NCBI GenBank assembly: GCA_001771545.1 | Contig: MEUC01000029.1 | Span: 1,445-65,444, forward strand | Reading direction: 5' to 3' | Source of the DNA: a candidate division WOR-1 bacterium RIFOXYB2_FULL_42_35 | GTDB taxonomy: Bacteria > Margulisbacteria > WOR-1 > O2-12-FULL-45-9 | DNA length: 64,000 bases | Shown here: positions 6,643-61,962 of the stretch, in pieces | Numbering within the stretch: position 1 is the first letter of the stretch | Layout of the letters: every line of letters begins with the position of its first letter | Program-made: the position numbers and the translations under genes | The notes under the pieces: model-generated | Seen by the model: only the letters and a program-made list of their open reading frames with translations | The model's database searches: none | Told to the model about the DNA's origin: nothing

Positions 6643-6753
6643 TATATATATGAGGACTCCGAAAAATTGACTCTCTACTCGACGACAGCCGGCGACCCTA
6701 AGAGGGTCGCCTACGCGGAGAAGTTGAGTTTTTCGGAACTCTCTATATATATC
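6643..6753. repeat. MITE-like palindromic element. It has TA-repeat flanks, inverted CCGAAAAA/TTTTTCGG arms, and a central hairpin GGCGACCCT-AAG-AGGGTCGCC followed by TACGCG.
   Basis: Inverted repeats and the hairpin were read directly. A related copy lies at 42103-42240. Confidence 0.7.
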
Positions 6754-6988: not shown

Positions 6989-7843
6989 TTATTTATCTTC
7001 GTTGGCACGTTTAATCAATGGCAAGACCCCACCAGCCATGTCACCAATCACATTAACTAATTCAGTCCCGGCTGGCACCACAATTTTGGCATTGTTTTTG
7101 AGGGATTCAGAGACTGTTTCTAAACGTTTAAGTAATTGGGCATTGCCAACAAAATATTTTTCTGCGGCTTCGTTAACCAATTTAATTGCATCAGCTTCAG
7201 CTGTTGCTTTCAAACGAATTCCCTGGGCTTGCCCTTCAGCTTTTTTAATCTCTGCTCGACGATTACCATCAGCCTTTGTTTCTAGCGCCGTAGCAATATC
7301 CAGGGCAGCAATTTTTTCGTTTTCTGCCTTAACAACCATATTCATGGCCGCTTGCACATCAGCAGGCGGTTCAATTCTTTGCAATTCAACGCGGATAACA
7401 GTAATGCCCCAGGGATCAGTCTGTTTATCAAGGATTGCTTCAACTTCACTATTGATCTTATCTCTATTCTCGTTTGCTTCAGTCAAGGTCATTTTACCAA
7501 TCACAGCGCGCAAGGTGGTTTTTGCTAAAGATGGCACCGCAGAGAAGAAATCATTAACATTGTAAATAGCTTTGGTCGGGTCAACAACCTTATAATAGAC
7601 TACGCCATCAACTTCAGCATTAAGCTTATCTTTGGTAATGATTGATTGCGGCTCAATATCAACCCGTTGTTCGGTGATATTGATGCGATACATTTTCTGT
7701 ACCACAGGAATAAGAAAATGAAGGCCTGCCTCGGCTGTGCTGGAAAACTTTCCCAAGGTTTCAACAACCCCTTTTTCTACCGGTCGAACAATCTTAATCG
7801 TGTAATAGGCCAAGACAACAATAACTATAAATAACCAATACAT
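6989..7843 (-). CDS. SPFH/band-7 (stomatin/prohibitin-like, QmcA/YbbK family) membrane protein.
   Basis: N-terminal TM segment followed by an SPFH domain (…LRAVIGKMTLTEANENRDKINSEV…) and a C-terminal coiled coil. Confidence 0.8.
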   Translation of the reverse strand: MYWLFIVIVVLAYYTIKIVRPVEKGVVETLGKFSSTAEAGLHFLIPVVQKMYRINITEQRVDIEPQSIITKDKLNAEVDGVVYYKVVDPTKAIYNVNDFFSAVPSLAKTTLRAVIGKMTLTEANENRDKINSEVEAILDKQTDPWGITVIRVELQRIEPPADVQAAMNMVVKAENEKIAALDIATALETKADGNRRAEIKKAEGQAQGIRLKATAEADAIKLVNEAAEKYFVGNAQLLKRLETVSESLKNNAKIVVPAGTELVNVIGDMAGGVLPLIKRANEDK

Positions 7844-7910: not shown

Positions 7911-8046
7911 AGGAAATTGGAAATAGGGTTATGGGTTTGGAGGCCAGTATGGAAACTGGAGATAGATTATTAAAATTAGGTTAATCTAACGTCAACTTCC
8001 AGCTTCAAAAGTCTATACTGGCATCTACAACCAAAACCCAACTTCC
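7911..8046. repeat. ~135-bp imperfect palindromic intergenic element (copy 1 of 2).
   Basis: The arms GGGTTATGGGTTTGGAGGCCAGTATGGAAACTGGAG and CTTCCAGCTTCAAAAGTCTATACTGGCATCTACAACCAAAACCCAAC are reverse complements of one another. A homologous copy lies at 54196-54324. Confidence 0.7.
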
Positions 8047-8072
8047 TAATTCAAGCATGTTATACTTATTCT

Positions 8073-9386
8073 ATGGACCTCTTTGACAAAAACCTAAAAA
8101 AGAACACCCCTCTCCCCTTTCGCATGGCTCCACGCAATCTCGATGAAATGGTTGGGCAGGAAGACATTCTGGGAGAAGGAAAACTGTTGCGAAGGTTAGT
8201 TGAAGCTGATAAGGTTAGTTCACTTATTCTTCATGGACCTCCTGGAACAGGTAAAACTGCCCTAGCTCGAGTGATAGCCAACACCACCAAAGGCCATTTT
8301 GAATGGCTAAATGCCTCAACTGCCAAAGTTGACGATATTCGCAAAGTTAGTATTGAGGCAAAGAATCGCAAAAAACATAATTTAGTTAAAACTATTTTAT
8401 TTTTGGACGAGATACACCGCTTCAATAAGCTGCAACAAGATGTTTTGTTGCCTGATGTTGAGGAAGGTTTGTTTATTTTAATCGGCGCAACTACGGAAAA
8501 CCCTTTCTTCTACGTTAATTCCGCTCTAGTTTCAAGATCACAGATCTTTGAACTTAAACCATTGAGCACAGACAACCTGAAAGCTTTAATCAATCGAGCC
8601 ATTAAAGATAAAGAACGAGGGCTCGGCAACATTAAGCTTAAAATCAATGACGAAGCAATCAATCACTTAACCAAGATATCTGATGGTGATGCCAGAAAAG
8701 CTCTTTCCGCCCTTGAACTTGCTGCGCTCTCAACTCTTCCTGATAAGAAAGGGACTATTAACCTTGATCTTAAAGTCGCTGAAGAATCAATTCAAAAAAA
8801 AGCCGTGGTTTATGATAAACATGGTGAACAACATTACGATACTATTTCAGCTTTTATTAAATCAATGAGAGGCTCTGATCCCGATGCTGCCTTATATTAT
8901 TTAGCCAAGATGATCTATGCCGGTGAAGATCCACGTTTCATCGCTCGAAGAATCGTAATCTGCGCAGCAGAAGACGTTGGCAATGCTGATCCGCTAGCTT
9001 TGGTGGTTGCTAACTCAGCCATGCAGGTCGCAGAATTTGTGGGCATGCCAGAAGCTCGGATTCCCCTTGCTCAAGCGACAACCTATGTTGCCACCGCTCC
9101 GAAAAGTAACGCCGCTTATGTGGGTATTGATGCCGCACTAAAAGATGTTAAAGAAAACCCTACTTTGCCTGTGCCTAACCATTTAAAGAACGCAGTTTAT
9201 GACGGTGAAAAGAAAATGGGTAAAGGCAAAGGTTACAAGTATGCTCACAATTATGAAGGCGGGGTTGTTGAACAGGAACATTTAACAGAAAAGCGCAAAT
9301 ACTACGAACCCAAGGACATTGGCTTTGAGAAAAAGATAAGAGCCAGAATGAATCCCCCTACCTCACCTCAACCAGAATCGCGGTAA
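8073..9386 (+). CDS. rarA: Replication-associated recombination protein A (AAA+ ATPase RarA/MgsA).
   Basis: Walker A motif GPPGTGKTALARVIA, a sensor region, and a typical RarA C-terminal domain. Confidence 0.9.
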   Translation: MDLFDKNLKKNTPLPFRMAPRNLDEMVGQEDILGEGKLLRRLVEADKVSSLILHGPPGTGKTALARVIANTTKGHFEWLNASTAKVDDIRKVSIEAKNRKKHNLVKTILFLDEIHRFNKLQQDVLLPDVEEGLFILIGATTENPFFYVNSALVSRSQIFELKPLSTDNLKALINRAIKDKERGLGNIKLKINDEAINHLTKISDGDARKALSALELAALSTLPDKKGTINLDLKVAEESIQKKAVVYDKHGEQHYDTISAFIKSMRGSDPDAALYYLAKMIYAGEDPRFIARRIVICAAEDVGNADPLALVVANSAMQVAEFVGMPEARIPLAQATTYVATAPKSNAAYVGIDAALKDVKENPTLPVPNHLKNAVYDGEKKMGKGKGYKYAHNYEGGVVEQEHLTEKRKYYEPKDIGFEKKIRARMNPPTSPQPESR

Positions 9387-11410: not shown

Positions 11411-12091
11411 ATGAACAAACACTACGAAGAGCTCGGTTTCGCCAAAGTTGATCACCACCGCATTAAACGCAAAGGTTTTCCTGAAGTCATTTATGGGCAA
11501 GGGAAAACTCCAGAGCAAATTACCAAGATCGCCCAAAGCTTAACCAAAAAGAAACAAAACGTCTTAGTAACTCGGACAGATAAAAAGGCCTTCGAAGCTG
11601 TTAAGAAAGCTCTGCCTAAAGCAAAGTTTTATGAGACTGCAAGGATTATTACGGTAAAAAGACTGCCAGACCGCCAGACTTCCAGACTGCCAGACCGCCA
11701 GACTATTAGCATTATAAGTGCGGGAACCGCAGATCTGCCAGTCACCGAAGAAGCCGCTGTTACCGCTGAGTTTCTTGGACTCAAAGTTAAGAGGTTTTAC
11801 GATGTTGGCGTGGCTGGCATTCATCGTTTGATCAATAACATCAAAGAAATTAGAAAAGCTAAAGTCATAATTGTCGTTGCCGGCATGGAAGGAGCCCTCC
11901 CCTCTGTTGTTGGCGGCTTGGTTGATAAACCAATTATTGCTGTGCCAACCTCTGTTGGCTATGGGGCAAGCTTTAAGGGAGTATCTGCACTTTTAACAAT
12001 GATGAATAGCTGTGTCCCTGGAATTGCGGTCGTGAACATTGATAATGGCTTTGGTGCTGCTGTTATGGCTTATAGTATAATAAAAGTATGA
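11411..12091 (+). CDS. larB: Nickel-pincer cofactor biosynthesis protein LarB (PurE-like carboxylase/hydrolase).
   Basis: PurE-like core …[42 protein letters not shown]… in the LarB architecture. It is adjacent to larC. Confidence 0.75.
11661..11704 (+). repeat. Tandem duplication of a 20-bp unit, with a 4-bp spacer and a 24-bp period, inside larB. It encodes [16 protein letters not shown].
   Basis: gactgccagaccgccagact occurs twice in direct succession. Confidence 0.8.
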
Positions 12092-25029: not shown

Positions 25030-25080
25030 TTCCTTAATTTTGAGCTTTGGTCTTTGATCTTTGAACTTTAGTCTTCTAGG
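25030..25080. repeat. Heptamer-periodic CTTTG repeat tract (ATTTTG-AGCTTTG-GTCTTTG-ATCTTTG-AACTTTA).
   Basis: Seen directly. A member of the dispersed low-complexity family. Confidence 0.6.
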
Positions 25081-28511: not shown

Positions 28512-29907
28512 GATATTTTTCAACCACTTCTCTATCATCAAGAGATACTTTCTTCCCATTAAAATCCTGAAACTGCTCATGCCCCCGCCCAGCAATTAGA
28601 ACGGTGTCTCCCTTTTTCGCCATCGACAAGGCTTGTTCAATTGCCTTCTTCCTATCTATTTGAACTTTGAGCTTTGAGCTTGGGATTTCCTTTGAACTTT
28701 GAGCTTTGGACTTTGATCTTATAATGTCATCAATGATAGCCTGCGGCTCTTCCCCATGCGGATCGTCTGTAGTCACAATAACAAGATCAGCCAATCTTCC
28801 CGCAATCTCCCCCATCACCGGCCGTTTGGCTTTATCACGATCACCCGGGCAACCAAAAACGAGAATAACTTTGCCTTCAGTTAGAGGACGAAAAGTTTCT
28901 ATTAGTTTCTGCAATGCATCTGGTGAATGGGCAAAGTCGACAATAACACGAAATGGTTGCCCACAATCAACAGGCTCAACCCGACCTGGCACAGTTTTCA
29001 AGGCTTCAATCCCTTGTTTAATAACTCTTTGGGGAACACCAAGAACTAAGGCACACTGATAAGCAGCAACTATATTATAAACATTGGGCAGGCCAATTAA
29101 ATTCGTGCGAATATCCAAAGAATTTATTCTTAAAAGCATCTCCTTAGCCATGACCTTGATACTGACAATATTGGTATCAAAGTCATTATGTTTGGTATTA
29201 CGTAATTCATGCTTAGCCTGACCGATCCCATAAGTAACAACCTCTCCTGGAACAACAGCCATAACCTTATTAGTATAGGGATCATCAGCATTAATAATCG
29301 CAATCCCATCATTAGGCAGCATTTTAAATAATTCCAGTTTGGCAGCTAAGTACTGTTCCATATTTTGATGAAAATCAAGGTGATCGTGGGTCAAGTTTGT
29401 AAAGATAGCCACAGCAAACTCGCAACCAGCAACCCGCAACTGACTCAAGGCATGTGAGGAAACCTCCATGACACAATGGGTTACTCCCCTTTTAACCATT
29501 TCCGCCAACATCGGCTGCAGATCTGATGCCTCTGGAGTTGTTAAAGAAGAATTAATGGTGCCAATCACTTCGGTCTTATGACCGGCTTTTTTTAGAATCG
29601 ATTGAATAAGATAAGCTGTTGTGGTTTTTCCGTTTGTTCCAGTAATACCAATTAATTTTAATTTTTTAGAAGGATAATCATAAACCTCACAAGCCAACTC
29701 AGCCAAAGCTTTTCTTGCCGAGGAAACCTTCTTAAACTCTATTCCGGCAGGAACTTGGACATCTTTTTCAGCGACAATTAACTTGGCCCCGGCCTCAACT
29801 GCCTGAGGAATAAAATCAGTCCCATTAAACTTAGCCCCCGGAATAGCTACATAAATATAGCCCGGCTTAACCTTTCTTGAATCGTGTGTTATGCCCTTAT
29901 ACTTCAT
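28501..29907 (-). CDS. murE: UDP-N-acetylmuramoyl-L-alanyl-D-glutamate–2,6-diaminopimelate ligase.
   Basis: GITGTNGKTTTAYL and the DNPR-type motif. The probable true start is MKYKGITHDSRK at 29907. The 29949 ORF start lies in repeat DNA. Confidence 0.85.
   Translation of the reverse strand: MKYKGITHDSRKVKPGYIYVAIPGAKFNGTDFIPQAVEAGAKLIVAEKDVQVPAGIEFKKVSSARKALAELACEVYDYPSKKLKLIGITGTNGKTTTAYLIQSILKKAGHKTEVIGTINSSLTTPEASDLQPMLAEMVKRGVTHCVMEVSSHALSQLRVAGCEFAVAIFTNLTHDHLDFHQNMEQYLAAKLELFKMLPNDGIAIINADDPYTNKVMAVVPGEVVTYGIGQAKHELRNTKHNDFDTNIVSIKVMAKEMLLRINSLDIRTNLIGLPNVYNIVAAYQCALVLGVPQRVIKQGIEALKTVPGRVEPVDCGQPFRVIVDFAHSPDALQKLIETFRPLTEGKVILVFGCPGDRDKAKRPVMGEIAGRLADLVIVTTDDPHGEEPQAIIDDIIRSKSKAQSSKEIPSSKLKVQIDRKKAIEQALSMAKKGDTVLIAGRGHEQFQDFNGKKVSLDDREVVEKYLSH
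28650..28712. repeat. 63-bp CAAAGNN heptamer-repeat insertion lying in frame inside murE. It encodes SKSKAQSSKEIPSSKLKVQ.
   Basis: gaactttgagctttgagcttgggatttcctttgaactttgagctttggactttgatctt. The reverse complement translates in the murE frame. Confidence 0.7.
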
Positions 29908-29929
29908 AAAAGCTCCAAGATCAAAGTAC

Positions 29930-30090
29930 AAAGTCCAAAATAAGTCCAAAATCCCAAGAGCAAACTTACAAATTTGATCTTTTGACTTGGATCTTTGATA
30001 TTGTTTTGTCCCGCTTCCATCATCTGATAATTATTGCGGGATCCCGCAAGGCGGGAATCTTTGGACCTAGATCTTTGATCTTCCATATTA
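29930..30090. repeat. Palindromic array of heptamer-type repeats (CAAAGTC… then …TTTGATC) with an embedded TCCCGC-AAG-GCGGGA hairpin.
   Basis: Seen directly in the murE–femX intergenic region. Confidence 0.6.
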
Positions 30091-31155: not shown

Positions 31156-31366
31156 GTCTAACGGTTATTATATCAACCATTAATTAGAAGGACAAACAAA
31201 AAGCGCCCGGCTTTAGCTTTCAAATCCTGCAAGGGACTTACTCGCCAAAGCCAGGCTGTTTTTTATTCGTCCCCGATGTAACATCGGAAAACAGGAATAA
31301 GTCTTGGACTTAATTTTGCACGCTCTGCATTTCCGTAGAGATACAAACTCCGGCATCTTTAAGTAT

Positions 31367-31448
31367 TCGACCAGGTGAACCGCGTTGTTGTTATAACGAT
31401 TATCAGGGTTGTTGTTGTTGTTGCGGTTCGCGTTGTTCAGAGAACGCC
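31367..31448 (-). repeat. DGR template repeat (TR), adenine-rich on the minus strand with AAC codons.
   Basis: 82-bp match to 32845-32926 with 12 mismatches. All 12 are A in this copy (minus strand). Confidence 0.85.
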
Positions 31449-31460
31449 GGATTTACAGGC

Positions 31461-32456
31461 TTATCCCTTTATTAAAATATTAGAAAACAATTTTCTCCTT
31501 AGATGGAATGAATTGGCAAATACGGCGTACCCCAGCCAGCTTTGTATTGAGCAAGTAATCTTGGGTATGGACATTAAGTTGCTTTGAAAAAGGCTGATAT
31601 ATTTTCTCATTCTTATTTTAAAGCGCTTGACGTTTTCTTTGGCCACCAGCTTATGGCTGGGATAAACCTTATAGCCAAGAAACTTCACGCCGTTCTTAGT
31701 TGGATAGACCTGGCATTTATTAGCATGCAGTTGCAGCTTTAGCTTTTCAAGATAATCAGCAATTCTTTTTCTGGCCTGGTTTAGCTGTCCTTTATCATTA
31801 CCAAATACTATCAGGTCGTCCATATAACGGAGGTAAAACCGGCATTTAAGGTTTTCTTTTAAATAATGGTCTAACCCATTGAGATAAAGATTGGCAAATA
31901 TCTGGCTAGCTAAATTCCCAATCGGAATCCCAGGAGAAGGTGTTGAATCAATAATTAGTTTAATCAGCCAAAGAGCTTCCGGGTCTTTTATCTTATCCAT
32001 AATCATCCCGAGTAAGATTTCGTGATCTATGGAAGCAAAATAGTTTTTAACGTCGCACTTCAAAGCATATTTATTTTTGCGGCAATATACTTGAAACCGG
32101 CTAACAGCCCGATGGCTGCCTTTGCTTTTCCGGCAAGCGTAGGAATCGAAGATCAGCACCCGATCAAAAATGGGCTCAATGACATTGCAAAGTGCATGCT
32201 GGGCAACTCGATCTCGGTAAGGCAAGGCACTGATTAGTCTCTTTTTCGGATCATAGATATGGAATTGCTTGTAGTGACCAACCCGATATGTGTGGCTTTG
32301 GAGTTCTGCCTGAAGAGTAAAAATCTCTTTTTCAAAACCAAGATTAAAATCGCTGACAGGGGTTTTGAGCTTCTTGCCTCTCTGGGCCTTCCCGGCCGCT
32401 AAAAGGAGGTTCTCAAAAGAGCAGATTTTCTCATAAAGATTATGATGCCTTTTCAT
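31461..32456 (-). CDS. Diversity-generating-retroelement reverse transcriptase.
   Basis: RT motifs …RYMDDLIVFG… and the DGR-specific IPIGNLASQIFANLYLNGLD. Flanked by TR and VR. Confidence 0.85.
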   Translation of the reverse strand: MKRHHNLYEKICSFENLLLAAGKAQRGKKLKTPVSDFNLGFEKEIFTLQAELQSHTYRVGHYKQFHIYDPKKRLISALPYRDRVAQHALCNVIEPIFDRVLIFDSYACRKSKGSHRAVSRFQVYCRKNKYALKCDVKNYFASIDHEILLGMIMDKIKDPEALWLIKLIIDSTPSPGIPIGNLASQIFANLYLNGLDHYLKENLKCRFYLRYMDDLIVFGNDKGQLNQARKRIADYLEKLKLQLHANKCQVYPTKNGVKFLGYKVYPSHKLVAKENVKRFKIRMRKYISLFQSNLMSIPKITCSIQSWLGYAVFANSFHLRRKLFSNILIKG

Positions 32457-32778
32457 GTTTTAGCCAGCCCCCAACCTGGGAACCGATTTCCAAAAGATAT
32501 CGGGCAGCGAACTCATAGCTCTTAAGATTGATCAAACGCAGATCATGGCTAAGGCGAAACAGATAGCGCAGCTTTTCAATTTCAAGATTTGCGTTCTTAA
32601 GCGCATTAGTTTTGTCTTTGGAATATTGGGCTTCAATGAGAAGCTCCAACAGGCCAATTACTTTATTTTCGATTCTTTCTCCGAGGGTATATCTTTGATT
32701 GCGCGGGAACTTCGCAATGTGGGGGACGACCCATCTGAGGAAATCATAGGAACAGGTTACGACTTTTGGCCCTTCCAT
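32440..32778 (-). CDS. Probable DGR accessory variability determinant (Avd-like small helical protein).
   Basis: 112-aa helical ORF between the VR-bearing target and the RT. Overlaps the RT start by 17 nt. Confidence 0.5.
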   Translation of the reverse strand: MEGPKVVTCSYDFLRWVVPHIAKFPRNQRYTLGERIENKVIGLLELLIEAQYSKDKTNALKNANLEIEKLRYLFRLSHDLRLINLKSYEFAARYLLEIGSQVGGWLKHEKAS

Positions 32779-32837
32779 ATTATGCTAAAATTTTCCTTCC
32801 CCACCCCTAAAAAAGTAAAAGGATAAAGCTTAATTTA

Positions 32838-33500
32838 TTAGTCCTCGACCAGGTGAACCGCGCTGCTGCCATAACGATCATCAGGGCTGCTGCTGAAGTT
32901 GCGGTTCGCGTAGTACAGAGAACGCCAATAGTAGGTGTCACTCCCCTTGCTGCTTTCTACCAAAAACCAATTATTCCCTCTCAGTTTAGCTTTCACATCA
33001 GCTGGTAAAGCCACAAATTCAGCCTCAGTCATAAACCTAAACTTTCTGCCTCGTTCATTTGCTCCTTTAATATAGTTCTTCGCATCATCCACATTTAAAA
33101 ACGTCAATGTCTCTCCGCTCGGCTCTTTCAAGCGGTCCCGAAGCGCTTCCTTGTTATGGCCGCTAACTTTCTCTGGCTTTAAGAATTGTGCGGCTTCAGC
33201 GTCTGTTAATTCTCCTATCATTATTTTTTTATAAGTTTGCCCCTCAACATTAAGCATATGCGGGAAAATTGTCTCGGGCTGGACTATATCCACAAGTTCT
33301 ATTTGAATGGCAACAGGATCTCGCCTTTGAGCTAGTAGAGATGGGAGGTCAGCGACCTTGTCTTCTGGTCTAAAACCTGGTCCTTTATGACCTGCCAGTC
33401 TTTTTGCCATTGCCTCTACTTTGGCTTTGTCTGACACTCCATCACTGGCACGGACTAGAACAGAACCTAAACTCTTTTTATCAATCCTTAAAAAACTCAT
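32838..33500 (-). CDS. DGR variable (target) protein with a minimal C-type-lectin/FGE-like fold. The VR lies at the C-terminus.
   Basis: …RKFRFMTEAEFVA… then WRSLYYANRNFSSSPDDRYGSSAVHLVED, encoded by the VR. Confidence 0.75.
   Translation of the reverse strand: MSFLRIDKKSLGSVLVRASDGVSDKAKVEAMAKRLAGHKGPGFRPEDKVADLPSLLAQRRDPVAIQIELVDIVQPETIFPHMLNVEGQTYKKIMIGELTDAEAAQFLKPEKVSGHNKEALRDRLKEPSGETLTFLNVDDAKNYIKGANERGRKFRFMTEAEFVALPADVKAKLRGNNWFLVESSKGSDTYYWRSLYYANRNFSSSPDDRYGSSAVHLVED
32845..32926 (-). repeat. DGR variable repeat (VR).
   Basis: Pairs with the TR at 31367-31448. The substitutions A→G (8) and A→T (4) all fall at TR adenines. Confidence 0.85.
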
Positions 33501-33588: not shown

Positions 33589-33897
33589 TTGAAAATAGTT
33601 TTGGGAGGAGAAGGCATGGTGCCAAAAAAAGAACTTAACACGGCAGTTAAACTCGCCAAAGAATACGGTGTGGGAAAATTGTATTTGTTTGGGTCTTCTT
33701 TGCATAAAAAATCCAGCGCAGTGAACGATTACGACTTCGCCGTAGCAGGCATCGCCCCTTCCAGGTTCTTTGCGTTTTATGGCAAATTATTTAGGGCTTT
33801 AAGCAAACCCGTCGATCTTGTCGATCTTTCGGAAAAATCTCTTTTTAATTCTCTCATAATAAGGGAAGGGAAGAAAATCTATGATAAATCTTCCTGA
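33589..33897 (+). CDS. Minimal nucleotidyltransferase (MntA-like antitoxin).
   Basis: GKLYLFGSSLHKKSSAVNDYDFAV matches the pol-beta NTase motif GS…D.D. Its 3' end overlaps the following HEPN gene. Confidence 0.65.
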   Translation: MKIVLGGEGMVPKKELNTAVKLAKEYGVGKLYLFGSSLHKKSSAVNDYDFAVAGIAPSRFFAFYGKLFRALSKPVDLVDLSEKSLFNSLIIREGKKIYDKSS

Positions 33898-34297
33898 GAA
33901 AATTTCCGCAGAAATAGACAATATAGAAAAATCCCTGGCCAATCTTTCCTCGCCCCTAAAGAAAAAGAAGAAATCAATTATAGAAATAGCGGGGATGGCC
34001 GCTTTCATCCAAAACATTTACAATGGTATCGAAAACATTTTAAAACAAATATTGAAGTCCAAAAACGTTTCTGTTGCTCACCCTGAAATATGGCACAAGG
34101 AATTACTGGAAAAATCAGTTAAAAACAACATCATCCCCGACGAGCTGGCCGAAGCACTTTACGAGTATCTCACCTTCAGGCATTTTTTTATCCATTCTTA
34201 TAGTTTTATGCTGGACAAAAAAAAAGTAGTTGCGCTGGCAAACAACATAAACAAGCTTTGGCAAAAGTTTTTAGGAGAAATAAAACCTTACCGGTAA
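33881..34297 (+). CDS. HEPN-domain (HepT-like) toxin.
   Basis: The R-x4-H motif in …[10 protein letters not shown]…. Confidence 0.6.
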
Positions 34298-34334: not shown

Positions 34335-34916
34335 TTGGAAAAAAATATGCTCTTAATGATCGATAATTACGACTCTTTCACCTACAACCTGGTGCAATAC
34401 CTGGGGGAATTGGGTGAGAATCTGAAAGTTTATCGTAATGATCAACTCACTATCGAAGATATCAAAAAGCTCAAACCAAACAAAATCGTCATCTCCCCCG
34501 GGCCCGGTTATCCTGCTGGTGCTGGCATTTCCATTGAAGTCATAAAAACTTTTGCCGGTAAAGTCCCAATTTTAGGTGTCTGTTTAGGTCATCAAGCTAT
34601 TGCCGAAGCTTTTGGCGGAAAAATAATCAGAGCCAAACGCTTAATGCACGGTAAGACTTCCGAAGTAAAGCACGATGGTAAAACTATTTTTAAGGGGCTA
34701 GATAACCCTTTCACAGCTACCCGTTATCATTCATTGATTGTGGATAGAAAAACCCTTCCTGACTGTTTTGAAATAACGGCTACTGCTATTGATAATAAAG
34801 ATGAAATCATGGGCATGAGACACAAGAAATTTAAATTAGAAGGTGTTCAGTTTCATCCTGAATCTATTTTGACTTCTGCGGGGAAGCAGCTGCTACATAA
34901 TTTTCTGGTGCTTTAG
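34335..34916 (+). CDS. Anthranilate / aminodeoxychorismate synthase glutamine-amidotransferase component II.
   Basis: [19 protein letters not shown]…GVCLGHQAI… (class-I GATase catalytic Cys). Either trpG or pabA. Confidence 0.85.
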
Positions 34917-34924
34917 AATATCAG

Positions 34925-35052
34925 TATACCAGTGAATCAGAGCGAGAGTATCAGAGAAACAGAATATTAGAAAATCAGAGCACGAATTATTATCTGATAT
35001 TCTGATCATCTAATAATCTAATATTCTGGCTCTGATACACTGATTCACTGAT
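34925..35052. repeat. Nested inverted-repeat structure built from ATCAGAG/CTCTGAT units.
   Basis: CCAGTGAATCAGAGC…GTATCAGAGAAACAGAATATTAG ‖ CTAATATTCTGGCTCTGATAC…CACTGATTCACTG. It lies between convergent genes. Confidence 0.6.
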
Positions 35053-35055
35053 GCT

Positions 35056-35322
35056 CTACTTTTTGCTCTTCTTTTCTATCTTCGGTTTATCAACTGTTCC
35101 CTTTTCAATAGGTTTAGCAGAAGACTTGGATTCTTTATGCGGCTTTTTCCCATAATCAGTGACATGAAAACCCGAACCTTTAAAGATTATCCCTGCAGCA
35201 GAAATTAAACGAAAAATGGACCCTTTGCATTCAGGACAAAACTTTAAAGGCTCTTCCTTAATACTTTGTTTGATTTCAAAGATATGGCCGCATTGTTTAC
35301 ATTTATAATCGTAGAGTGGCAT
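35056..35322 (-). CDS. FmdB-family zinc-ribbon protein.
   Basis: MPLYDYKCKQCGH…CPECKG. Confidence 0.7.
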   Translation of the reverse strand: MPLYDYKCKQCGHIFEIKQSIKEEPLKFCPECKGSIFRLISAAGIIFKGSGFHVTDYGKKPHKESKSSAKPIEKGTVDKPKIEKKSKK

Positions 35323-35666: not shown

Positions 35667-37289
<1,623 letters not shown>

Positions 37290-37297
<8 letters not shown>

Positions 37298-37640
37298 AAA
37301 TGGTCCCCTTCTTTATATTATCAACAACTTGCTTAACGCGAATATCTCTTATCCCTGCAGGAGTTAAAAGATCAACTTTTCTACCAAATGAATCTTCAAG
37401 AAAAAAAGCCAAATCCATAAAATTATCAAAACTGGTTTTCTTAAATTCAACAACCAAATCTATATCACTTTGGCTACTTTGTTCACCCCGGGCAAAAGAA
37501 CCAAACAAGCCAATGCGTTTAACATTAAATTTCTGCAAAACCCCGCTATTTTTCTTTAAAAAGCCTAAAATATCATCAGCCGTAAGATTTTTGCCATCTT
37601 TTCCTTTTTTATCATCTTTCATGTTTATTAGTATACCCAA
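37290..37640 (-). CDS. Nucleotidyltransferase antitoxin (MntA family).
   Basis: IGLFGSFARGEQSSQSDIDLVV. Confidence 0.7.
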
Positions 37641-41949: not shown

Positions 41950-42240
41950 GAAAAAGTGTCCCCCAAAGTGTATTTCGGGGGGAATGAGCCAAAAGAATAA
42001 CGCAGCGCCTAAGAGGCGCTGCTACGCGGGGGACCTAAATAGTTACAAATTCTTTCAAATAATTTTTGGGTTTCGTGAAATTTCTTCTTAAAATCATAGA
42101 CAACATATATAGAGAGCTCCGAAAAACTCGTTTTCTTCGCGTAGGCGACCCTCTTAGGGTCGCTCGTTGTCGACGAGAAGCAGAGCCTAAGAGGCTCTGC
42201 TACGCGAGTTAAAGGTTATTTTTTCGGAGGTCTCATATAT
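41950..42240. repeat. Cluster of three AAG-triloop hairpin units with MITE-like inverted arms and TA-repeat flanks. Related to 6643-6753.
   Basis: Hairpins read directly: GCAGCGCCT-AAG-AGGCGCTGC-TACGCG (42002-42028), GCGACCCT…AGGGTCGC (42144-42163, inverted) and GCAGAGCCT-AAG-AGGCTCTGC-TACGCG (42180-42206). Arms are ATATATAGAGAGCTCCGAAAAA / TTTTTTCGGAGGTCTCATATAT. Confidence 0.7.
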
Positions 42241-48624: not shown

Positions 48625-49311
48625 ATGATAAAGATCAAAGATCAAAATTTAAAGATCAAAACAAATCCCCAGATCAAAATCCCAAAGAATAAAAAGATTG
48701 GAGTTTTGATCTTATTATTTGGGATTTGTTTTGGATTTTGGTCTTTGAGCTTTGAACTTCCTGCCAAGGCCTGGAGCATCAACACCGAACTCAGGCAAGA
48801 AATAGCGGCTAAGCAAGCCGCGGTGGCTAAAGCACCCAACAGCGCCCTAGCCCACTTTGACCTGGGCATCACCTATGCTTACACCAACAACATCCAAAAA
48901 GGCTGGGACGAACTAAAAAAAGTTGAAGAACTAAACCCCAAGTTTCGCTCACAAGGCAGGAATCTTTACATTAACAAGGTCACCGCAGATCCCGATGATT
49001 GGCGGCTGCGGTTTCGCCTGGCTTTTGCCTACTATTTTAACAATGAAAAAAATGATGCCATCAGAGAACTTAAAAATGTTTTAATTATTGATCCTAATAA
49101 TGTTTGGGCTTATGGCTACTTGGCTCTAATTTATGGGGAACTAAACGAAGTTGATACCGCCATAGATTACACTAAAAAAGGCATAAAGATTGATAGCAAT
49201 GTTGCTGCCCTTCATCTCCTCCTGTCAGAAGGCTATTATAAAAAAGGCAACTCTTGGGGCGGTTTTATAGAAAGAATGGAAGCAGTCCGTTTACTAGCTT
49301 TAGGATTTTAA
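48625..49311 (+). CDS. TPR-repeat protein with an N-terminal signal anchor. The first ~55 codons are encoded by a palindromic heptamer-repeat element.
   Basis: TPR motifs …AHFDLGITYAY… and WAYGYLALIYGE. The N-terminus MIKIKDQNLKIK…GVLILLFGICFGFWSLSF lies within repeat DNA. Confidence 0.6.
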   Translation: MIKIKDQNLKIKTNPQIKIPKNKKIGVLILLFGICFGFWSLSFELPAKAWSINTELRQEIAAKQAAVAKAPNSALAHFDLGITYAYTNNIQKGWDELKKVEELNPKFRSQGRNLYINKVTADPDDWRLRFRLAFAYYFNNEKNDAIRELKNVLIIDPNNVWAYGYLALIYGELNEVDTAIDYTKKGIKIDSNVAALHLLLSEGYYKKGNSWGGFIERMEAVRLLALGF

Positions 49312-51305: not shown

Positions 51306-53735
51306 TTACTTCTTCGCCACTTTGATAATCTTCTTAACCAAACCAACCGCTCCCACGGCATCCATACTATATGAAGCGCCGATGCGGTCGGCATAACCTT
51401 TGGTAACCACGGCCCCACCGACTAAAAGAGGAATATCAAGCTTAGCAGCTTTTAACTGATCGTTAACCACCCCCATTTCAACCATTGTTGTAGTTAAAAG
51501 GGCTGAAAGAGCAATCGCATTAGGTTTTTCGGCTTTGGCAACTTTAACAATTTCTTCCGGCGCAACGTCTTTGCCAAGATCAATTACTACAAAACCATGA
51601 TTCTCTAGCAACATCTTAACAATGTTTTTACCAATATCGTGAATGTCTCCCTTAACCGTGGCTAAAACTATTTTCCCTTTGATTTTAACTTTATCTTGAG
51701 GGATATTAGCTTTACAAATAGCAAAACCAGCACTCATTGATTCGGCTGATTCTATAACCTGGGGCAAAAAATATTGACCACCAGAAAACTTTTTGCCAAC
51801 TACCTCCATGCCTGGAACTAAACCAAGATTTATTACCTTCTGCGGATCATATTTTTTTTCGATCGCCTGCTTAACCAAAACTTCTACGGCTTCCAGATTC
51901 CCGTCAATTACAGCTTCTTTAATGTCCTGATAGCCTGTGAACTTGATCTCCTTAACACTCGCCTCCCTCTTCTTCTCTGCTGGCTTGCCAGACCTCTTTG
52001 CCTTATCAACCTCCGCCTTAAACTTTCTTAACAGCTCTTCCCTTGCAACCGCCTTCTTGGCCTTAAAGGCCTTTAAGACCTTCCGTACCTCAGCATCACC
52101 AACATCAATTATCGCGGCGTCAAGTCCATAAGACAAAGCTAACTGAAAATAGAGCGCGTTTAATTTAGAACGATTGGGCATGCCATGAGAAACGTTACTA
52201 ATGCCCAGAATAGTTTTAACCCCAAATCTTTCTTTGATCATGGGTATTGCTTTAAGGGCTTCTAAGCAAGGCTGAATCCCCACTCCTGCAGTCATCACCA
52301 GGTTATCAACAAAGATGTCTCCTTTGGCAATGCCTACAGCCTGGGCTGTGTGAACAATTTTTTCGGCAATACGCAAGCGATCAGCTGCAGAATTAGGCAT
52401 ACCATGCTCATCGAGGGTTAAAGCAATAATTGCTGCCCCGTATCTTTTGGCCAGAGGAATGATTTTTTCTAAACTTTCTTTTTTGCCGCTAACAGAATTT
52501 AACAATGCCCGACCACAAAAAACCTTTAAACCAGCCTCTAGGGCAGCAACACTGGGAGAATCTATTGAAAGAGGCAGATCAGAAGCTGATTGAACTATTT
52601 TAACAGCCTGATGCATTACTGCTGACTCCACAATATCACGAGTGGAAATGTTCACATCCAAGAGATCAGCTTTGGCCTTTGTCTGACCGGCAGCTTCAGA
52701 ACGCATAATCCGCGTCTTGCCTCCCCTAATCTCTTCTTGAAAAATCTTTCGACCAGTTGGATTGATCCTCTCGCCAACCAGAAAGGGTTTATCGGCGACT
52801 TCAACAACTTTGGTTCGACTGGCAAATTTTGTGCTTTGAATTTGTGATTTTTGATTTGTTTGGGGTTTAGAATTTAGAACTTTGGATTTCACGGCTTGGA
52901 TATGCTCCGGCGTAGTCCCACAACACCCGCCAATTATCCTAACGCCTAGCTTTGCAAATTTTTCCGCATACGCCCCAAACTGTCTAGCAGTCATTTTGTA
53001 AATAGCTTTATCACCAACAAGCTCTGGCATACCCGCATTAGGCATGACCATGACTGGCAATTTTGTGCAAGCAAGTAATCTTCCGGCAACCTTGAGCATG
53101 CCTTGGGGTCCGGTGGAACAGTTGGCAGAAACAATATCAACCCCCAAAGCTTCGAGAACCACAACTGCAACTTCAGGGGGAGTGCCATAAATAGTTTTTT
53201 CCACATCATCGTAGGTCATACTCGCAATAACAGGCAACTTGGTTTCGTTCTTAACTGCAATAACAGCTGCCCGCATTTCTTGCAGATCAGAAATAGTTTC
53301 CACACAAATGACATCAACCCCACCCTCTTCCAGCGCTTTGGCTTGCTCGGCAAAAGCAGCGTAAGCTTGATCAAAAGTAACATCTCCTAATGGATCAATT
53401 AGTTTTCCTAAAGGACCAATTGAACCGGAAACAAAACCTTTCACTCCGACAACTTTTCTGGCCAGTTTGGTAGCAGCAATATTTATCTCTTTAACTTTTT
53501 TCTCTGATTTATAATCGGCTAACTTAATGGCGTTAGCGCCAAAAGTGTTAGTTTCTAAAATATCAGCACCAGCCTCAACATAAGCCTTGTGGATAGACTG
53601 GACTAATTCAGGTCGTTTTAAATTTTGCAGATCAAAGCAATCTTCTGGCTTAACACCACCATTCATCAATTGTGTGCCCATGGCACCATCAATGACTAAG
53701 ATTCTTTTATTTAAAGCTTCTAAAAACCTACTCAT
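51306..53735 (-). CDS. metH: Cobalamin-dependent methionine synthase with Hcy, pterin and B12 domains. There is no C-terminal reactivation domain.
   Basis: Hcy-binding GGCCGTTP, a pterin-binding barrel, and the B12-binding DxHxxG motif (GDIHDIGKN). Confidence 0.8.
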   Translation of the reverse strand: MSRFLEALNKRILVIDGAMGTQLMNGGVKPEDCFDLQNLKRPELVQSIHKAYVEAGADILETNTFGANAIKLADYKSEKKVKEINIAATKLARKVVGVKGFVSGSIGPLGKLIDPLGDVTFDQAYAAFAEQAKALEEGGVDVICVETISDLQEMRAAVIAVKNETKLPVIASMTYDDVEKTIYGTPPEVAVVVLEALGVDIVSANCSTGPQGMLKVAGRLLACTKLPVMVMPNAGMPELVGDKAIYKMTARQFGAYAEKFAKLGVRIIGGCCGTTPEHIQAVKSKVLNSKPQTNQKSQIQSTKFASRTKVVEVADKPFLVGERINPTGRKIFQEEIRGGKTRIMRSEAAGQTKAKADLLDVNISTRDIVESAVMHQAVKIVQSASDLPLSIDSPSVAALEAGLKVFCGRALLNSVSGKKESLEKIIPLAKRYGAAIIALTLDEHGMPNSAADRLRIAEKIVHTAQAVGIAKGDIFVDNLVMTAGVGIQPCLEALKAIPMIKERFGVKTILGISNVSHGMPNRSKLNALYFQLALSYGLDAAIIDVGDAEVRKVLKAFKAKKAVAREELLRKFKAEVDKAKRSGKPAEKKREASVKEIKFTGYQDIKEAVIDGNLEAVEVLVKQAIEKKYDPQKVINLGLVPGMEVVGKKFSGGQYFLPQVIESAESMSAGFAICKANIPQDKVKIKGKIVLATVKGDIHDIGKNIVKMLLENHGFVVIDLGKDVAPEEIVKVAKAEKPNAIALSALLTTTMVEMGVVNDQLKAAKLDIPLLVGGAVVTKGYADRIGASYSMDAVGAVGLVKKIIKVAKK
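52827..52895. repeat. Heptamer-type repeat tract lying in frame in the metH interdomain linker. It encodes KSKVLNSKPQTNQKSQIQSTK.
   Basis: ctttgaatttgtgatttttgatttgtttggggtttagaatttagaactttggatttcac. Confidence 0.6.
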
Positions 53736-54144
53736 TAGGATCTTTCCTCATAATAATGGCATCTTCACGATTGTCCTGGTAATAATTTTTTCTTAAACCA
53801 ACGTTTTTGAAACCATATTGTTCATAAAGGTTGCGAGCAGCAAGGTTTGAGACCCTAACCTCAAGAAAAAAAACATCATTACTATTGATAACCTTTTCGA
53901 TCAGGCTTTTGCCAATCCCTTTTCGACGGCAATCAGGATGAACAGCCATATTAATGACATGCTTTTCACCGGCAATATCTTCTATGCCAATATAGCCGAC
54001 GATTTTGTCAGCTTCTTTAGCCACTAAATACTTCTTTTCATCATCCCGAAAAATCTGTTCCGGCTTAGGGACAACAAAAGAGCCCTTTTCAATGGCAAAG
54101 ACTGTAGCAATATCGCTGTCAAGCATAGGGGAAATGGTTAACAT
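53728..54144 (-). CDS. rimI: Ribosomal-protein-alanine N-acetyltransferase (GNAT).
   Basis: …RRKGIGKSLIEKVI… in the operon context with tsaB. Confidence 0.75.
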   Translation of the reverse strand: MLTISPMLDSDIATVFAIEKGSFVVPKPEQIFRDDEKKYLVAKEADKIVGYIGIEDIAGEKHVINMAVHPDCRRKGIGKSLIEKVINSNDVFFLEVRVSNLAARNLYEQYGFKNVGLRKNYYQDNREDAIIMRKDPNE

Positions 54145-54195
54145 GAAAAGATTATAGCATAAATCTTAGGATACCGAGGATCTCTCTTAGATTAA

Positions 54196-54324
54196 GGAAA
54201 TAGGGTTATGGGCGTAGAAGCCGGTATGGAAATTGGAAATGGAAAATTGAAGTTGGGTTAATCAAACATCCAATTCCAGCTTCTACTATCAATACTGGCA
54301 TCCTAACCCAACACCCAATTTCCA
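54196..54324. repeat. ~130-bp palindromic element (copy 2 of 2). Homologous to 7911-8046.
   Basis: AATAGGGTTATGGG…GGTATGGAAATTGGA…TTCCAGCTTC…ATACTGGCATC…ACCCAA. Confidence 0.7.
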
Positions 54325-54333
54325 ATTAAAAAA

Positions 54334-54942
54334 CTAAGACGTTTTGAAAACTCTAATATTAGGCATATGTGAATACTGTGGCACTAACTTAAGCGGGTCA
54401 GCAGTTTCTCCGGCTTTAATTTTTAATAACCCCAACCGAGCAACATTGATCCCATAAGGATGATATTTGGATCCATCAACAACCTTTAGTTCGCCGGTAA
54501 CATTAGACAAGAACTCTTTAATTTTAGCTTCCGTTAAAACCAAATCATCAGTTAATCTTTTCAACTGACCTTGATGCGCCCCAAAAAGAGCAAAATTAAA
54601 CTCATCCATTCTGGCATCTAACTTAACCGCCATAGTTCCCTCGAAATCTATCAAGTTATAAGCAATTGCTGCCAAGGTTGATACACCAACCAGGGGAACT
54701 TTTAAGGTTTGAGCTAAAGATTTGGCAGTAGCTAGCCCTCCCCGTAAACCAGAATAAGATCCCGGACCTTGAGCAACAGCAATACCTTCAATTTGTTCCG
54801 GTTTAATCCCGGCTGCTTCAACATAGAAAACAATCTTTTCTGCCGCCATATCAGCAATCGTTGTTTCAAGCAATACCTGATCGTCATCAATCAAGCCGAT
54901 ACTGACAACCTTTGTTGCGCTGCTGATGCCTAAGATTTTCAT
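54334..54942 (-). CDS. tsaB: tRNA threonylcarbamoyladenosine biosynthesis protein TsaB.
   Basis: MKILGISSATKVVSIGL… (YeaZ fold). Confidence 0.8.
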   Translation of the reverse strand: MKILGISSATKVVSIGLIDDDQVLLETTIADMAAEKIVFYVEAAGIKPEQIEGIAVAQGPGSYSGLRGGLATAKSLAQTLKVPLVGVSTLAAIAYNLIDFEGTMAVKLDARMDEFNFALFGAHQGQLKRLTDDLVLTEAKIKEFLSNVTGELKVVDGSKYHPYGINVARLGLLKIKAGETADPLKLVPQYSHMPNIRVFKTS

Positions 54943-54959
54943 GATAAACCTCGTTTCTT

Positions 54960-55140
54960 AAGGGAGTTAAGGCCTTTATGGTTTTTATGGGAGTAAAGGC
55001 TTTTAAGGGATTAAGGGTTTTAAAGGCTTTGTAAGACAAGGGGGAGAAATTCCGCCCTTTATCTTTAATTACCTAACAGCCTTAATACCTCAACTGCCCT
55101 TATTACCTTAAAGGTCCTAAAAGCCTTCACCACCTTATTT
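54960..55140. repeat. Periodic TTAAGG/CCTTAA-type low-complexity palindromic tract.
   Basis: GGCCTTTATGG-TTTTTATGG-GAGTAAAGG-CTTTTAAGG-GATTAAGG-GTTTTAAAGG… followed by the inverse CCTTAA… units. Confidence 0.55.
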
Positions 55141-55166
55141 TACAAGTATAACAAAATCTGAAATTT

Positions 55167-61035: not shown

Positions 61036-61962
61036 TTAAACTTGCCGGCCAACTGCTAACATTTTTTCAATAGCCAGACGCGCTTTAGCCGCTATTTCGG
61101 GCGGGACTCTTACTTCTGTTATTAAATCTTCTAACGACCAAAGGATTTTCTCAAGAGTGGTTAACTTCATATTAGGGCAAATTGCGCTAGCCAGTGCGGG
61201 ATAAAAGTTTTTTTCTGGGTTTTGTCTTTTAAGACTATGAAGAATCCCAATTTCGGTCGCCAGGATAAACTCTTTACTCCCTGATTCTTTAGCTAATTTG
61301 AGCATGCCTCCGGTTGATAAGACATAATCAGCCAAAGCAATTGTTTCTGGCCGGCATTCCGGATGGACCAAGACCTTTGCTCCCGGATATTTATCTTTGG
61401 CTGTCATAATATGCTCAGGCAAAATTTTGGCATGCGTTGGACAAAAACCTTGCCACAAGATAATTCTCTTATCCTTCACCTTACTGGCAACATAACTCCC
61501 CAAATATTTATCCGGTACAAAAATAATTTCTTCTGTATTGGTCAAGGACTCAACTACCCTAATCGCATTAGCAGAAGTACAACAGATATCAGACTCTGCC
61601 TTAATATCTGCCCCACTATTGACATAGCAAACCACTTTGGCCTTTGGATTTTGATCCTTGAGCTTCTTAAGGGCTGTAACGGTAATCATATCCGCCATGG
61701 GACAGCCCGCATTGATCTCAGGGACAACAACCTTCTTATCAATGGAAATGATCGCAGCAGTTTCTGCCATAAAGTTTACACCACAGAACACAATTAACTT
61801 TGCTGTGGTTTTCGACGCTTCAATAGAAAGGCCTAGAGAATCCCCAGTGTAATCGGCAATATCCTGGACCTCCCCTATTTGATAGTTATGCGCCAGGACG
61901 ACCGCGTTGTGGTTTTTTTTCAACTTATTGATTTTGTTTATTAGATTATTTTTCATTGTCAA
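61036..61962 (-). CDS. nadA: Quinolinate synthase.
   Basis: Three-fold repeat with the Cys ligands characteristic of NadA. Confidence 0.85.
   Translation of the reverse strand: MTMKNNLINKINKLKKNHNAVVLAHNYQIGEVQDIADYTGDSLGLSIEASKTTAKLIVFCGVNFMAETAAIISIDKKVVVPEINAGCPMADMITVTALKKLKDQNPKAKVVCYVNSGADIKAESDICCTSANAIRVVESLTNTEEIIFVPDKYLGSYVASKVKDKRIILWQGFCPTHAKILPEHIMTAKDKYPGAKVLVHPECRPETIALADYVLSTGGMLKLAKESGSKEFILATEIGILHSLKRQNPEKNFYPALASAICPNMKLTTLEKILWSLEDLITEVRVPPEIAAKARLAIEKMLAVGRQV

Follow-up and report, generated by a model that had tools for sequence, protein, structure and literature searches.

A palindromic repeat of 128 nt is present twice in the 64,000-nucleotide stretch of DNA analyzed here (hereafter the window), which belongs to a groundwater Saganbacteria MAG, and diverged members of it were found in related genomes. 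We assign this repeat, with a probability of about 0.5, to a small, lineage-restricted and non-coding family of dispersed, non-autonomous palindromic repeats of the MITE/REPIN kind. Elements of this kind are familiar; what is newly described is the family and the lineage that hosts it. Saganbacteria and Margulisbacteria are uncultured sister lineages of Cyanobacteria and, to our knowledge, small palindromic repeats have not been catalogued in either of them.

The original prediction, made from the letters of the window, placed two related elements of about 135 bp and about 75% identity in it. A repeat search across the 64 kb recovered both of them as an ungapped direct repeat of 128 nt, and their identity of 78.1% was slightly above the expected figure (copies 1 and 2, Table 1). 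The match is collinear, in the same orientation and spans a separation of about 46 kb; MAFFT was concordant, and blastn with copy 1 as a query against the window returned copy 2 with E = 3.8e-26. Among the landmarks proposed as common, AATAGGGTTATGGG, GTATGGAAA, TTCCAGCTTC, ATACTGGCATC and ACCCAA showed no difference between the copies, and the remaining one, TTAGGTTAATC, reads TTGGGTTAATC in copy 2 by a one-base change. Terminal inverted repeats are present (GGAAATAGGGT / ACCCAAtTTCC) and arm complementarity extends over at least 41 nt. Both copies are entirely intergenic, in spacers of 229 and 189 nt, and lie outside the listed ORFs (at least 50 aa).

No third close copy was observed in the window: searches allowing up to 3 mismatches, one with the terminal 17-mer and one with the 3' block, matched copies 1 and 2 only, and a covariance-model scan of the 10 kb past the right end of the window gave no additional copy. 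The count is then two copies within the approximately 75 kb of the source genome that were read (window and flanks). Exact-pattern scans of genome, viral and metagenome contig collections that do not contain the source genome gave 0 matches. All strain-level contigs of the source species have both copies unchanged, with no presence/absence polymorphism. Two contigs of one species from different assemblies (L169 and L170) stop at the same base, at about 54317, 7 nt inside copy 2; this shared end may come from an assembly break or a drop in coverage at the palindrome, or the same reads may have been assembled twice.

Table 1. Coordinates of the palindromic repeat, its neighbors and other features; positions are those of the window unless a contig is named.
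Feature	Position	Strand	Remarks
Repeat copy 1	7919..8046	+	divergent SPFH/Band_7-rarA spacer; 75 nt from SPFH start, 14 nt 5' of rarA -10 box
Copy 1 left arm	7913..7953	+	G-rich, degenerate 7-nt period GGAAATT GGAAATA GGGTTAT GGGTTTG
Copy 1 right arm	8012..8052	+	76% complementary to left arm, 41 nt
Repeat copy 2	54196..54323	+	between tsaB stop (54334-54336, minus) and rimI promoter
Ends expected for a parent element			GGAAATAGGGTTATGGG-like
Family member in L012	L012:12210-12337		divergent spacer between small minus-strand gene and typA
SPFH/Band_7 gene	6989-7843	-	flanks copy 1
rarA	8073-9386	+	flanks copy 1
tsaB	54334-54942	-	flanks copy 2
GNAT/rimI gene	53728-54144	-	flanks copy 2, followed by metH
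rarA extended -10 box TGtTATACT	8058..8066	+	outside element; 6 nt before ATG at 8073
rimI extended -10 box TGcTATAAT	54151..54159	-	outside element; 6 nt before ATG at 54144; conserved in sister species
typA extended -10 region with TGcTATAAT	L012 12408-12422		6 nt before ATG
rarA-adjoining hairpins	L014 9893-9967, 11298-11412; L031 11300-11396; L037 11307-11427; L063 9914-9977; L064 2382-2461		
Long palindrome	34914-35058		directly after glutamine amidotransferase gene stop
Long palindrome	48631-48759		right after hldE-like stop, overlapping TPR-protein ORF 5' end
Long palindrome	54950-55146		between tsaB and divergent 390-aa gene
Long palindrome	29917-30087		
Long palindrome	42008-42222		
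TTTGRNC degenerate heptamers (family D1)	25038-25068, 28658-28727, 29972-30082, 48729-48759, 61635-61665		28658-28727 is the one single array
REP-like short palindromes (family D6)	6644-6752, 42002-42222		three related, GC-rich
8-nt tandem array	11660-11704		about 5.5 copies
Diversity-generating retroelement (DGR)	31355-33500		
DGR reverse transcriptase	31461-32456	-	
DGR bAvd-like accessory gene	32440-32778	-	
DGR template repeat	31355-31448		
DGR variable repeat	32833-32926		at 3' end of target gene 32838-33500 (minus)
Nucleotidyltransferase/HepT-like toxin-antitoxin gene pairs	33589-34297, 36959-37640		

The two copies sit in unrelated contexts. As anticipated, copy 1 lies between the divergent SPFH and rarA genes; copy 2 occupies the spacer of the tandem tsaB and rimI genes, beginning 10 nt past the tsaB stop and leaving 36 nt before the extended -10 box of rimI. 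The protein encoded by rarA is identical to that of candidate division WOR-1 bacterium RIFOXYB2_FULL_42_35 (GCA_001772455.1), and the window corresponds to positions 1491-65490 of an ENA contig of 104.7 kb.

Pairing of the arms over about 40 bp had been proposed for copy 1 and was confirmed as an ungapped inverted repeat (Table 1). The minimum-free-energy hairpins contained 41-44 pairs for copy 1 and 52-55 pairs for copy 2 with its flanks included, the stem of copy 2 running on into these flanks (54185-54339). Folding energies were -44 to -49 kcal/mol compared to -25 to -28 kcal/mol for dinucleotide shuffles (z = -4.9 to -5.6); 0 of 200 shuffles was as stable as either copy, and z was about -5 on both strands. 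For copies 1 and 2 and for the element of a sister species (L007, see below), the two strands were approximately equal in folding energy and had the same G-U counts, and for the element of a third locus (L012, see below) one strand was more stable by about 10 kcal/mol. The near-equal folding of the strands therefore gives no consistent sign of one strand as a selected RNA. A sliding minimum-free-energy scan was uninformative because it tracks composition. We also rejected a G-quadruplex in the G-rich arm: the aligned copies each have two or three runs of GGG, and none has four close together.

These folding results weigh on the reading of the two copies as paralogues of a free-standing small RNA gene, for instance a 6S-like long hairpin RNA, which we hold to be very improbable. 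Such a gene would account for a long imperfect hairpin in two copies and for its conserved pairing, but both strands fold equally, no TGnTATAAT-type promoter is found upstream and no terminator downstream on either strand, and most relatives either lack the element or have unrelated sequence in its place. Moreover, a search of the window with Rfam 15 at the gathering threshold returned one tRNA only and no family for the element; even at E <= 10, the two copies gave no match to 6S or to another credible family, only chance matches to miRNA-precursor, snoRNA and plastid-leader models.

The same SPFH-rarA arrangement is found in the sister species, on the Logan contig L007 (92% and 85% protein identity for rarA and SPFH, respectively), which is the only locus among those fetched where the SPFH gene adjoins rarA. 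Its spacer carries a diverged element at the place of copy 1, 58.8% identical to it with 14 gap positions; in the same comparison, identity is 62-65% in the flanking spacer and 78.6% over the region as a whole. For the SPFH gene, a Shine-Dalgarno sequence is present, and the 75 nt between this gene and the element are conserved with L007. The paralogues of the window are closer to each other than the orthologues are (78.1% vs 58.8%). Therefore, either the copy-1 lineage gave rise to copy 2 once the species had split, or the two copies have become homogenised since then.

We rebuilt the tsaB-rimI spacer of the sister species from two contigs of the same sample as L007, L080 (tsaB) and L174 (rimI-metH), joined by a 24-nt exact end overlap. 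The element is absent from this 120-nt spacer, in which we observed no alignment to it and no long hairpin (z = -1.2). The rimI promoter region alone is in common with the window, and the flanks are unalignable. The comparison demonstrates that the element is absent; it does not provide a clean empty site. A truncated copy at the end of L080 was tested for and none was present. In more distant relatives, whole genes separate tsaB and rimI. Another contig, L005, was considered as a rearrangement joining both copies and was rejected: only 2.9 kb of its 15 kb match the window, at 100% identity and beginning inside the SPFH gene, and the remainder, including rpsF-ssb-rpsR, has no match there. Such a limited match indicates a chimeric or foreign contig, and L005 is probably a chimeric assembly.

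To extend the family, we built a covariance model from the two window copies and the L007 element and used it to search 641 kb comprising the window, its strain copies and Margulisbacteria loci. The model returned a match of 50.7 bits in another Margulisiibacteriota MAG (L012, Table 1). This member was also found by a sequence-only nhmmer search (E = 1.9e-4 in 2.1 Mb, the next matches having E > 2); it has not kept the terminal GGAAAT/ATTTCC motif. By the same model, one weak match was obtained in 742 kb from 80 metagenome loci of SPFH relatives, whose SPFH identity to the query is at most 75% and mostly 53-63%. Blastn against the fetched loci was insensitive and missed even the L007 orthologue. 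In most relatives examined, the element is absent or unrelated sequence is present; the family was seen in a few uncultured Saganbacteria only (candidate division WOR-1).

We analyzed the pairing on a MAFFT alignment of the four sequences (copies 1 and 2, L007 and L012), in which standard pairs occupy 88.6% of the cells. Changes on both sides affected 15 of the 34 pairs compared to 8.3 ± 1.9 in column shuffles (0 of 500 reached 15), a count from n = 4 sequences that is biased toward hairpins by L012, located with a structure-aware model, and that would be expected of any two palindromes aligned in register. Controls with partners slid by 1-3 columns gave 1-5 such pairs, and a three-sequence alignment gave a signal in the same direction, weaker. 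The secondary-structure and covariation analysis named as a check in the original prediction hence finds the hairpin retained in relatives. Its opposite, that only two copies would exist and that no structure would be conserved in relatives, does not hold, because the element occurs in relatives with its hairpin retained. Palindromy persists despite sequence turnover. This may be due to functional selection, to a need of the copying mechanism or to a mutational process that makes sequences symmetrical, and the pairing data do not choose among them. Retention through speciation with compensated pairs could equally fit host selection for the hairpin.

From its place between divergent genes, it had been suggested that copy 1 could carry a promoter or operator function. 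Our results do not support this proposal, since the core promoters sit beside the element and outside it, the rarA box is conserved whatever lies upstream, and the context of copy 2 is unrelated. In L007, as in most of about 30 Margulisbacteria loci, the rarA start codon lies 6-8 nt past a TGnTATAAT box, and the sequence upstream of this box is unrelated from locus to locus. Saganbacteria appear to use such extended -10 promoters 6-8 nt before the start codon. Judged from this conservation, the rarA mRNA is very probably leaderless or nearly so, and transcribed from a promoter needing no -35 region; the boxes at rarA, rimI and typA suggest that leaderless transcription is widespread in this lineage. 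A promoter scan around the copies gave nothing above shuffled expectation, and a terminator scan around both detected no terminator-like site and no U-tract. Overall, the element adjoins core promoters rather than overlapping them.

This position leads to the question of a cis-acting hairpin selected by the host. As RNA, it would be a 3'-end, stability or insulator hairpin after tsaB, or a structured leader if the near-symmetric -10 region by rarA also fires toward the SPFH gene; as DNA, it would be a cruciform or a protein-binding array upstream of the extended -10 promoters. The closeness of copy 2 to the tsaB stop fits the first of these forms, but copy 1 lies in a divergent spacer where no transcript requires a 3' end, and the U-tract/terminator signature is absent. 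A TGnTATAAT box is found 14-66 nt downstream at all three family loci, and promoter-near heptamer repeats have been proposed as regulatory in Nostoc (bioRxiv 10.1101/2022.06.06.494920); however, copies 1 and 2 differ from each other in orientation relative to the adjacent promoter, the distances vary (14, 36 and 66 nt), and upstream sequence is unrelated at most rarA loci of the phylum. Compensated changes keep the hairpin in the orthologue and the homologue, yet the pairing is without strand asymmetry, the primary sequence evolves as fast as neutral spacer (59% vs 62-65%) and the sister species lacks the element at tsaB-rimI. In favor of a host function, other long hairpins of the window and of related loci immediately follow stop codons or immediately precede rarA promoters. 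Taken together, we keep a host-selected cis-acting hairpin as a minor but real possibility.

The window contains five further long palindromes of other, unrelated sequence (Table 1), with arm periods of 7, 8 or 9 nt where measured. The strongest palindrome of the window, after the glutamine amidotransferase gene, has 66-nt arms that are 74% complementary and consist of units of about 8 nt of the ATCAGAG type. The 129-nt hairpin after the hldE-like gene has (AAAGATC)n-type arms, and its 3' arm codes for a hydrophobic, signal-peptide-like segment of the TPR protein; on L174, from the sister species, the hldE-like and TPR-protein genes are adjacent and the hairpin is absent. The spacer between tsaB and the divergent 390-aa gene holds an imperfect hairpin of about 195 nt with TAAGG-type units of about 9 nt. 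Its counterpart on L080 is only 28 nt long, and TGtTATAAT stands there just a few bases ahead of the tsaB ATG. In the window, this hairpin separates the conserved -10 box from the tsaB start, where a GAGG ribosome-binding site now stands, and it may have turned a leaderless tsaB into a leadered gene. In other Margulisbacteria, unrelated long hairpins, some with 7-8-nt units, stand directly up- or downstream of rarA. Such palindromes lay within about 120 nt of rarA in 6 of 18 cases, over about 578 kb of loci that are all rarA-centred. A lineage-specific excess of long palindromes was rejected: their density is lower in Margulisbacteria loci than in other phyla (3.1 vs 4.6 per 100 kb), the window having 6 in 64 kb.

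Short repeats were observed as well. TTTGRNC degenerate heptamers occur as one single array and also as hairpin arms, in a form like that of cyanobacterial heptamer repeats; in the single array, period 7 (z = 6.6) is clearer than in the palindromic repeat. The three REP-like palindromes of family D6 take the form GGCGACCCTAAGAGGGTCGCC, and one of them sits inside a 109-nt hairpin with TATATATA ends. The 8-nt tandem array is made of AGACTGCC/AGACCGCC units.

Such structures are relevant to a non-mobile origin, in which slippage of units of about 7 nt followed by template-switch inverted duplication would make local palindromes, and a one-off segmental duplication or gene conversion would account for the two copies of the window. 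Period-7 autocorrelation is found in all four family members (z = 3.5-4.0), but the signal is weak and the arms do not form clean tandem arrays. The unrelated hairpins of the window with periods of 7, 8 or 9 nt and the plain TTTGRNC arrays are in keeping with this origin, as are the continuation of the copy 2 palindrome into flanks not common to copy 1, the absence from the sister species of the hairpin upstream of tsaB (28-nt spacer) and the inverted heptamer-repeat arrangements described in Xanthomonas (PMC4692102). However, the ungapped collinear match of 128 nt at 46 kb requires a copying step anyway, and a homologue at the sequence level is present at a third locus in another genome. We consider a non-mobile origin unlikely. 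In a broader proposal, hairpins with short-repeat arms, this family included, would form a host-maintained, promoter-proximal class in Saganbacteria, insulating or terminating without a U-tract or making leaderless genes leadered, and spread by an undescribed copying of palindromes; this seems to us quite improbable.

We compared the element to known repeat systems. It resembles MITEs (Correia/NEMIS, RUP and the cyanobacterial Nezha) in being about 130 bp long and non-coding, with inverted ends and a whole sequence foldable into a hairpin, in its intergenic location near promoters or stop codons, in its dispersed copies, and in its presence at one orthologous site and absence at another in the sister species. 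In contrast to MITEs, it has no consistent target-site duplication and we saw no parent insertion sequence that matches its ends, its terminal bases are unconserved in the most distant homologue, and only 2 copies were found in about 75 kb. With REP/REPIN elements and their RAYT transposases (PMC3116915), it has in common a long two-armed inverted hairpin, an intergenic location, compensated pairing and an action at the DNA level with no strand bias. Unlike these elements, it lacks a conserved GTAG head (GTAG is found in copy 2 and L012 and is absent at the aligned position in copy 1 and L007), neither arm is a short REP hairpin in itself, no RAYT gene was seen among the scanned ORFs of the window, and the high copy number typical of REPINs is not apparent from 2 copies in about 75 kb.

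A third likeness is to heptameric arrays, namely the cyanobacterial STRR, GGGGA(T/C)T of Nostoc and GGGAATC of Xanthomonas (PMC4692102), for which inverted arrangements able to form stem-loops have been described (PMC4692102). The element also has G-rich units of about 7 nt (GGGTTAT, GGGTTTG, GGAAATT), is intergenic and promoter-proximal as in Nostoc (bioRxiv 10.1101/2022.06.06.494920), and belongs to a phylum that is sister to Cyanobacteria. By contrast, it shows only a degenerate period 7 (z ~3.5) and no clean tandem array, its length does not vary among strains of the window species, and a collinear sequence of 128 nt at two loci is not explained by slippage alone. Because of this degenerate periodicity, we did not class the element with heptamer repeats.

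A small non-autonomous mobile element was the other possibility raised by the original prediction, and it stands in part. The dispersed copies, the higher identity of paralogues than of orthologues (78% vs 59%), the absence at the sister site and the homologue at a third locus argue for it, but no consistent target-site duplication was found. None of fixed length was observed, AATT (copy 1) and TTAA (copy 2) being present at both ends at differing offsets; these are self-complementary stem extensions. No transposase or RAYT gene was detected among the ORFs of the window scanned with Pfam, a set that leaves out four ORFs between 37665 and 41252, and, in a search of the window for a parent with the same ends, the terminal 17-mer (up to 3 mismatches) matched only the copies themselves.

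Among its other features, the window carries a diversity-generating retroelement (Table 1). Between its template and variable repeats, 14 of the 17 mismatches are at positions where the template has T in the plus strand and therefore A in the coding strand, an adenine-specific pattern. Two nucleotidyltransferase/HepT-like toxin-antitoxin gene pairs are also present.

Under the preferred reading of a non-autonomous palindromic repeat, copying at the DNA level would have produced copy 2 from the copy-1 lineage once the species had split, through transposition in trans or through a recombination or template-switch event; gene conversion between the copies would be expected to give the same pattern of paralogue similarity. 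The palindrome would be the feature needed by the copying or maintenance machinery. The element could persist at its sites because insertions are tolerated just outside core promoters and downstream of stop codons. Effects on neighboring genes would then be secondary, as a 3' hairpin on the tsaB transcript or as an alteration of the DNA that precedes the rarA and rimI promoters.

On present evidence, the element reveals no new regulatory mechanism. The two contigs of one species ending just inside the repeat may serve as a practical warning for assembly. For these uncultured lineages, the repeat family provides a marker of recent genome dynamics, because one site would have been gained after the species split, and an example of a hairpin that is retained through the turnover of its sequence.
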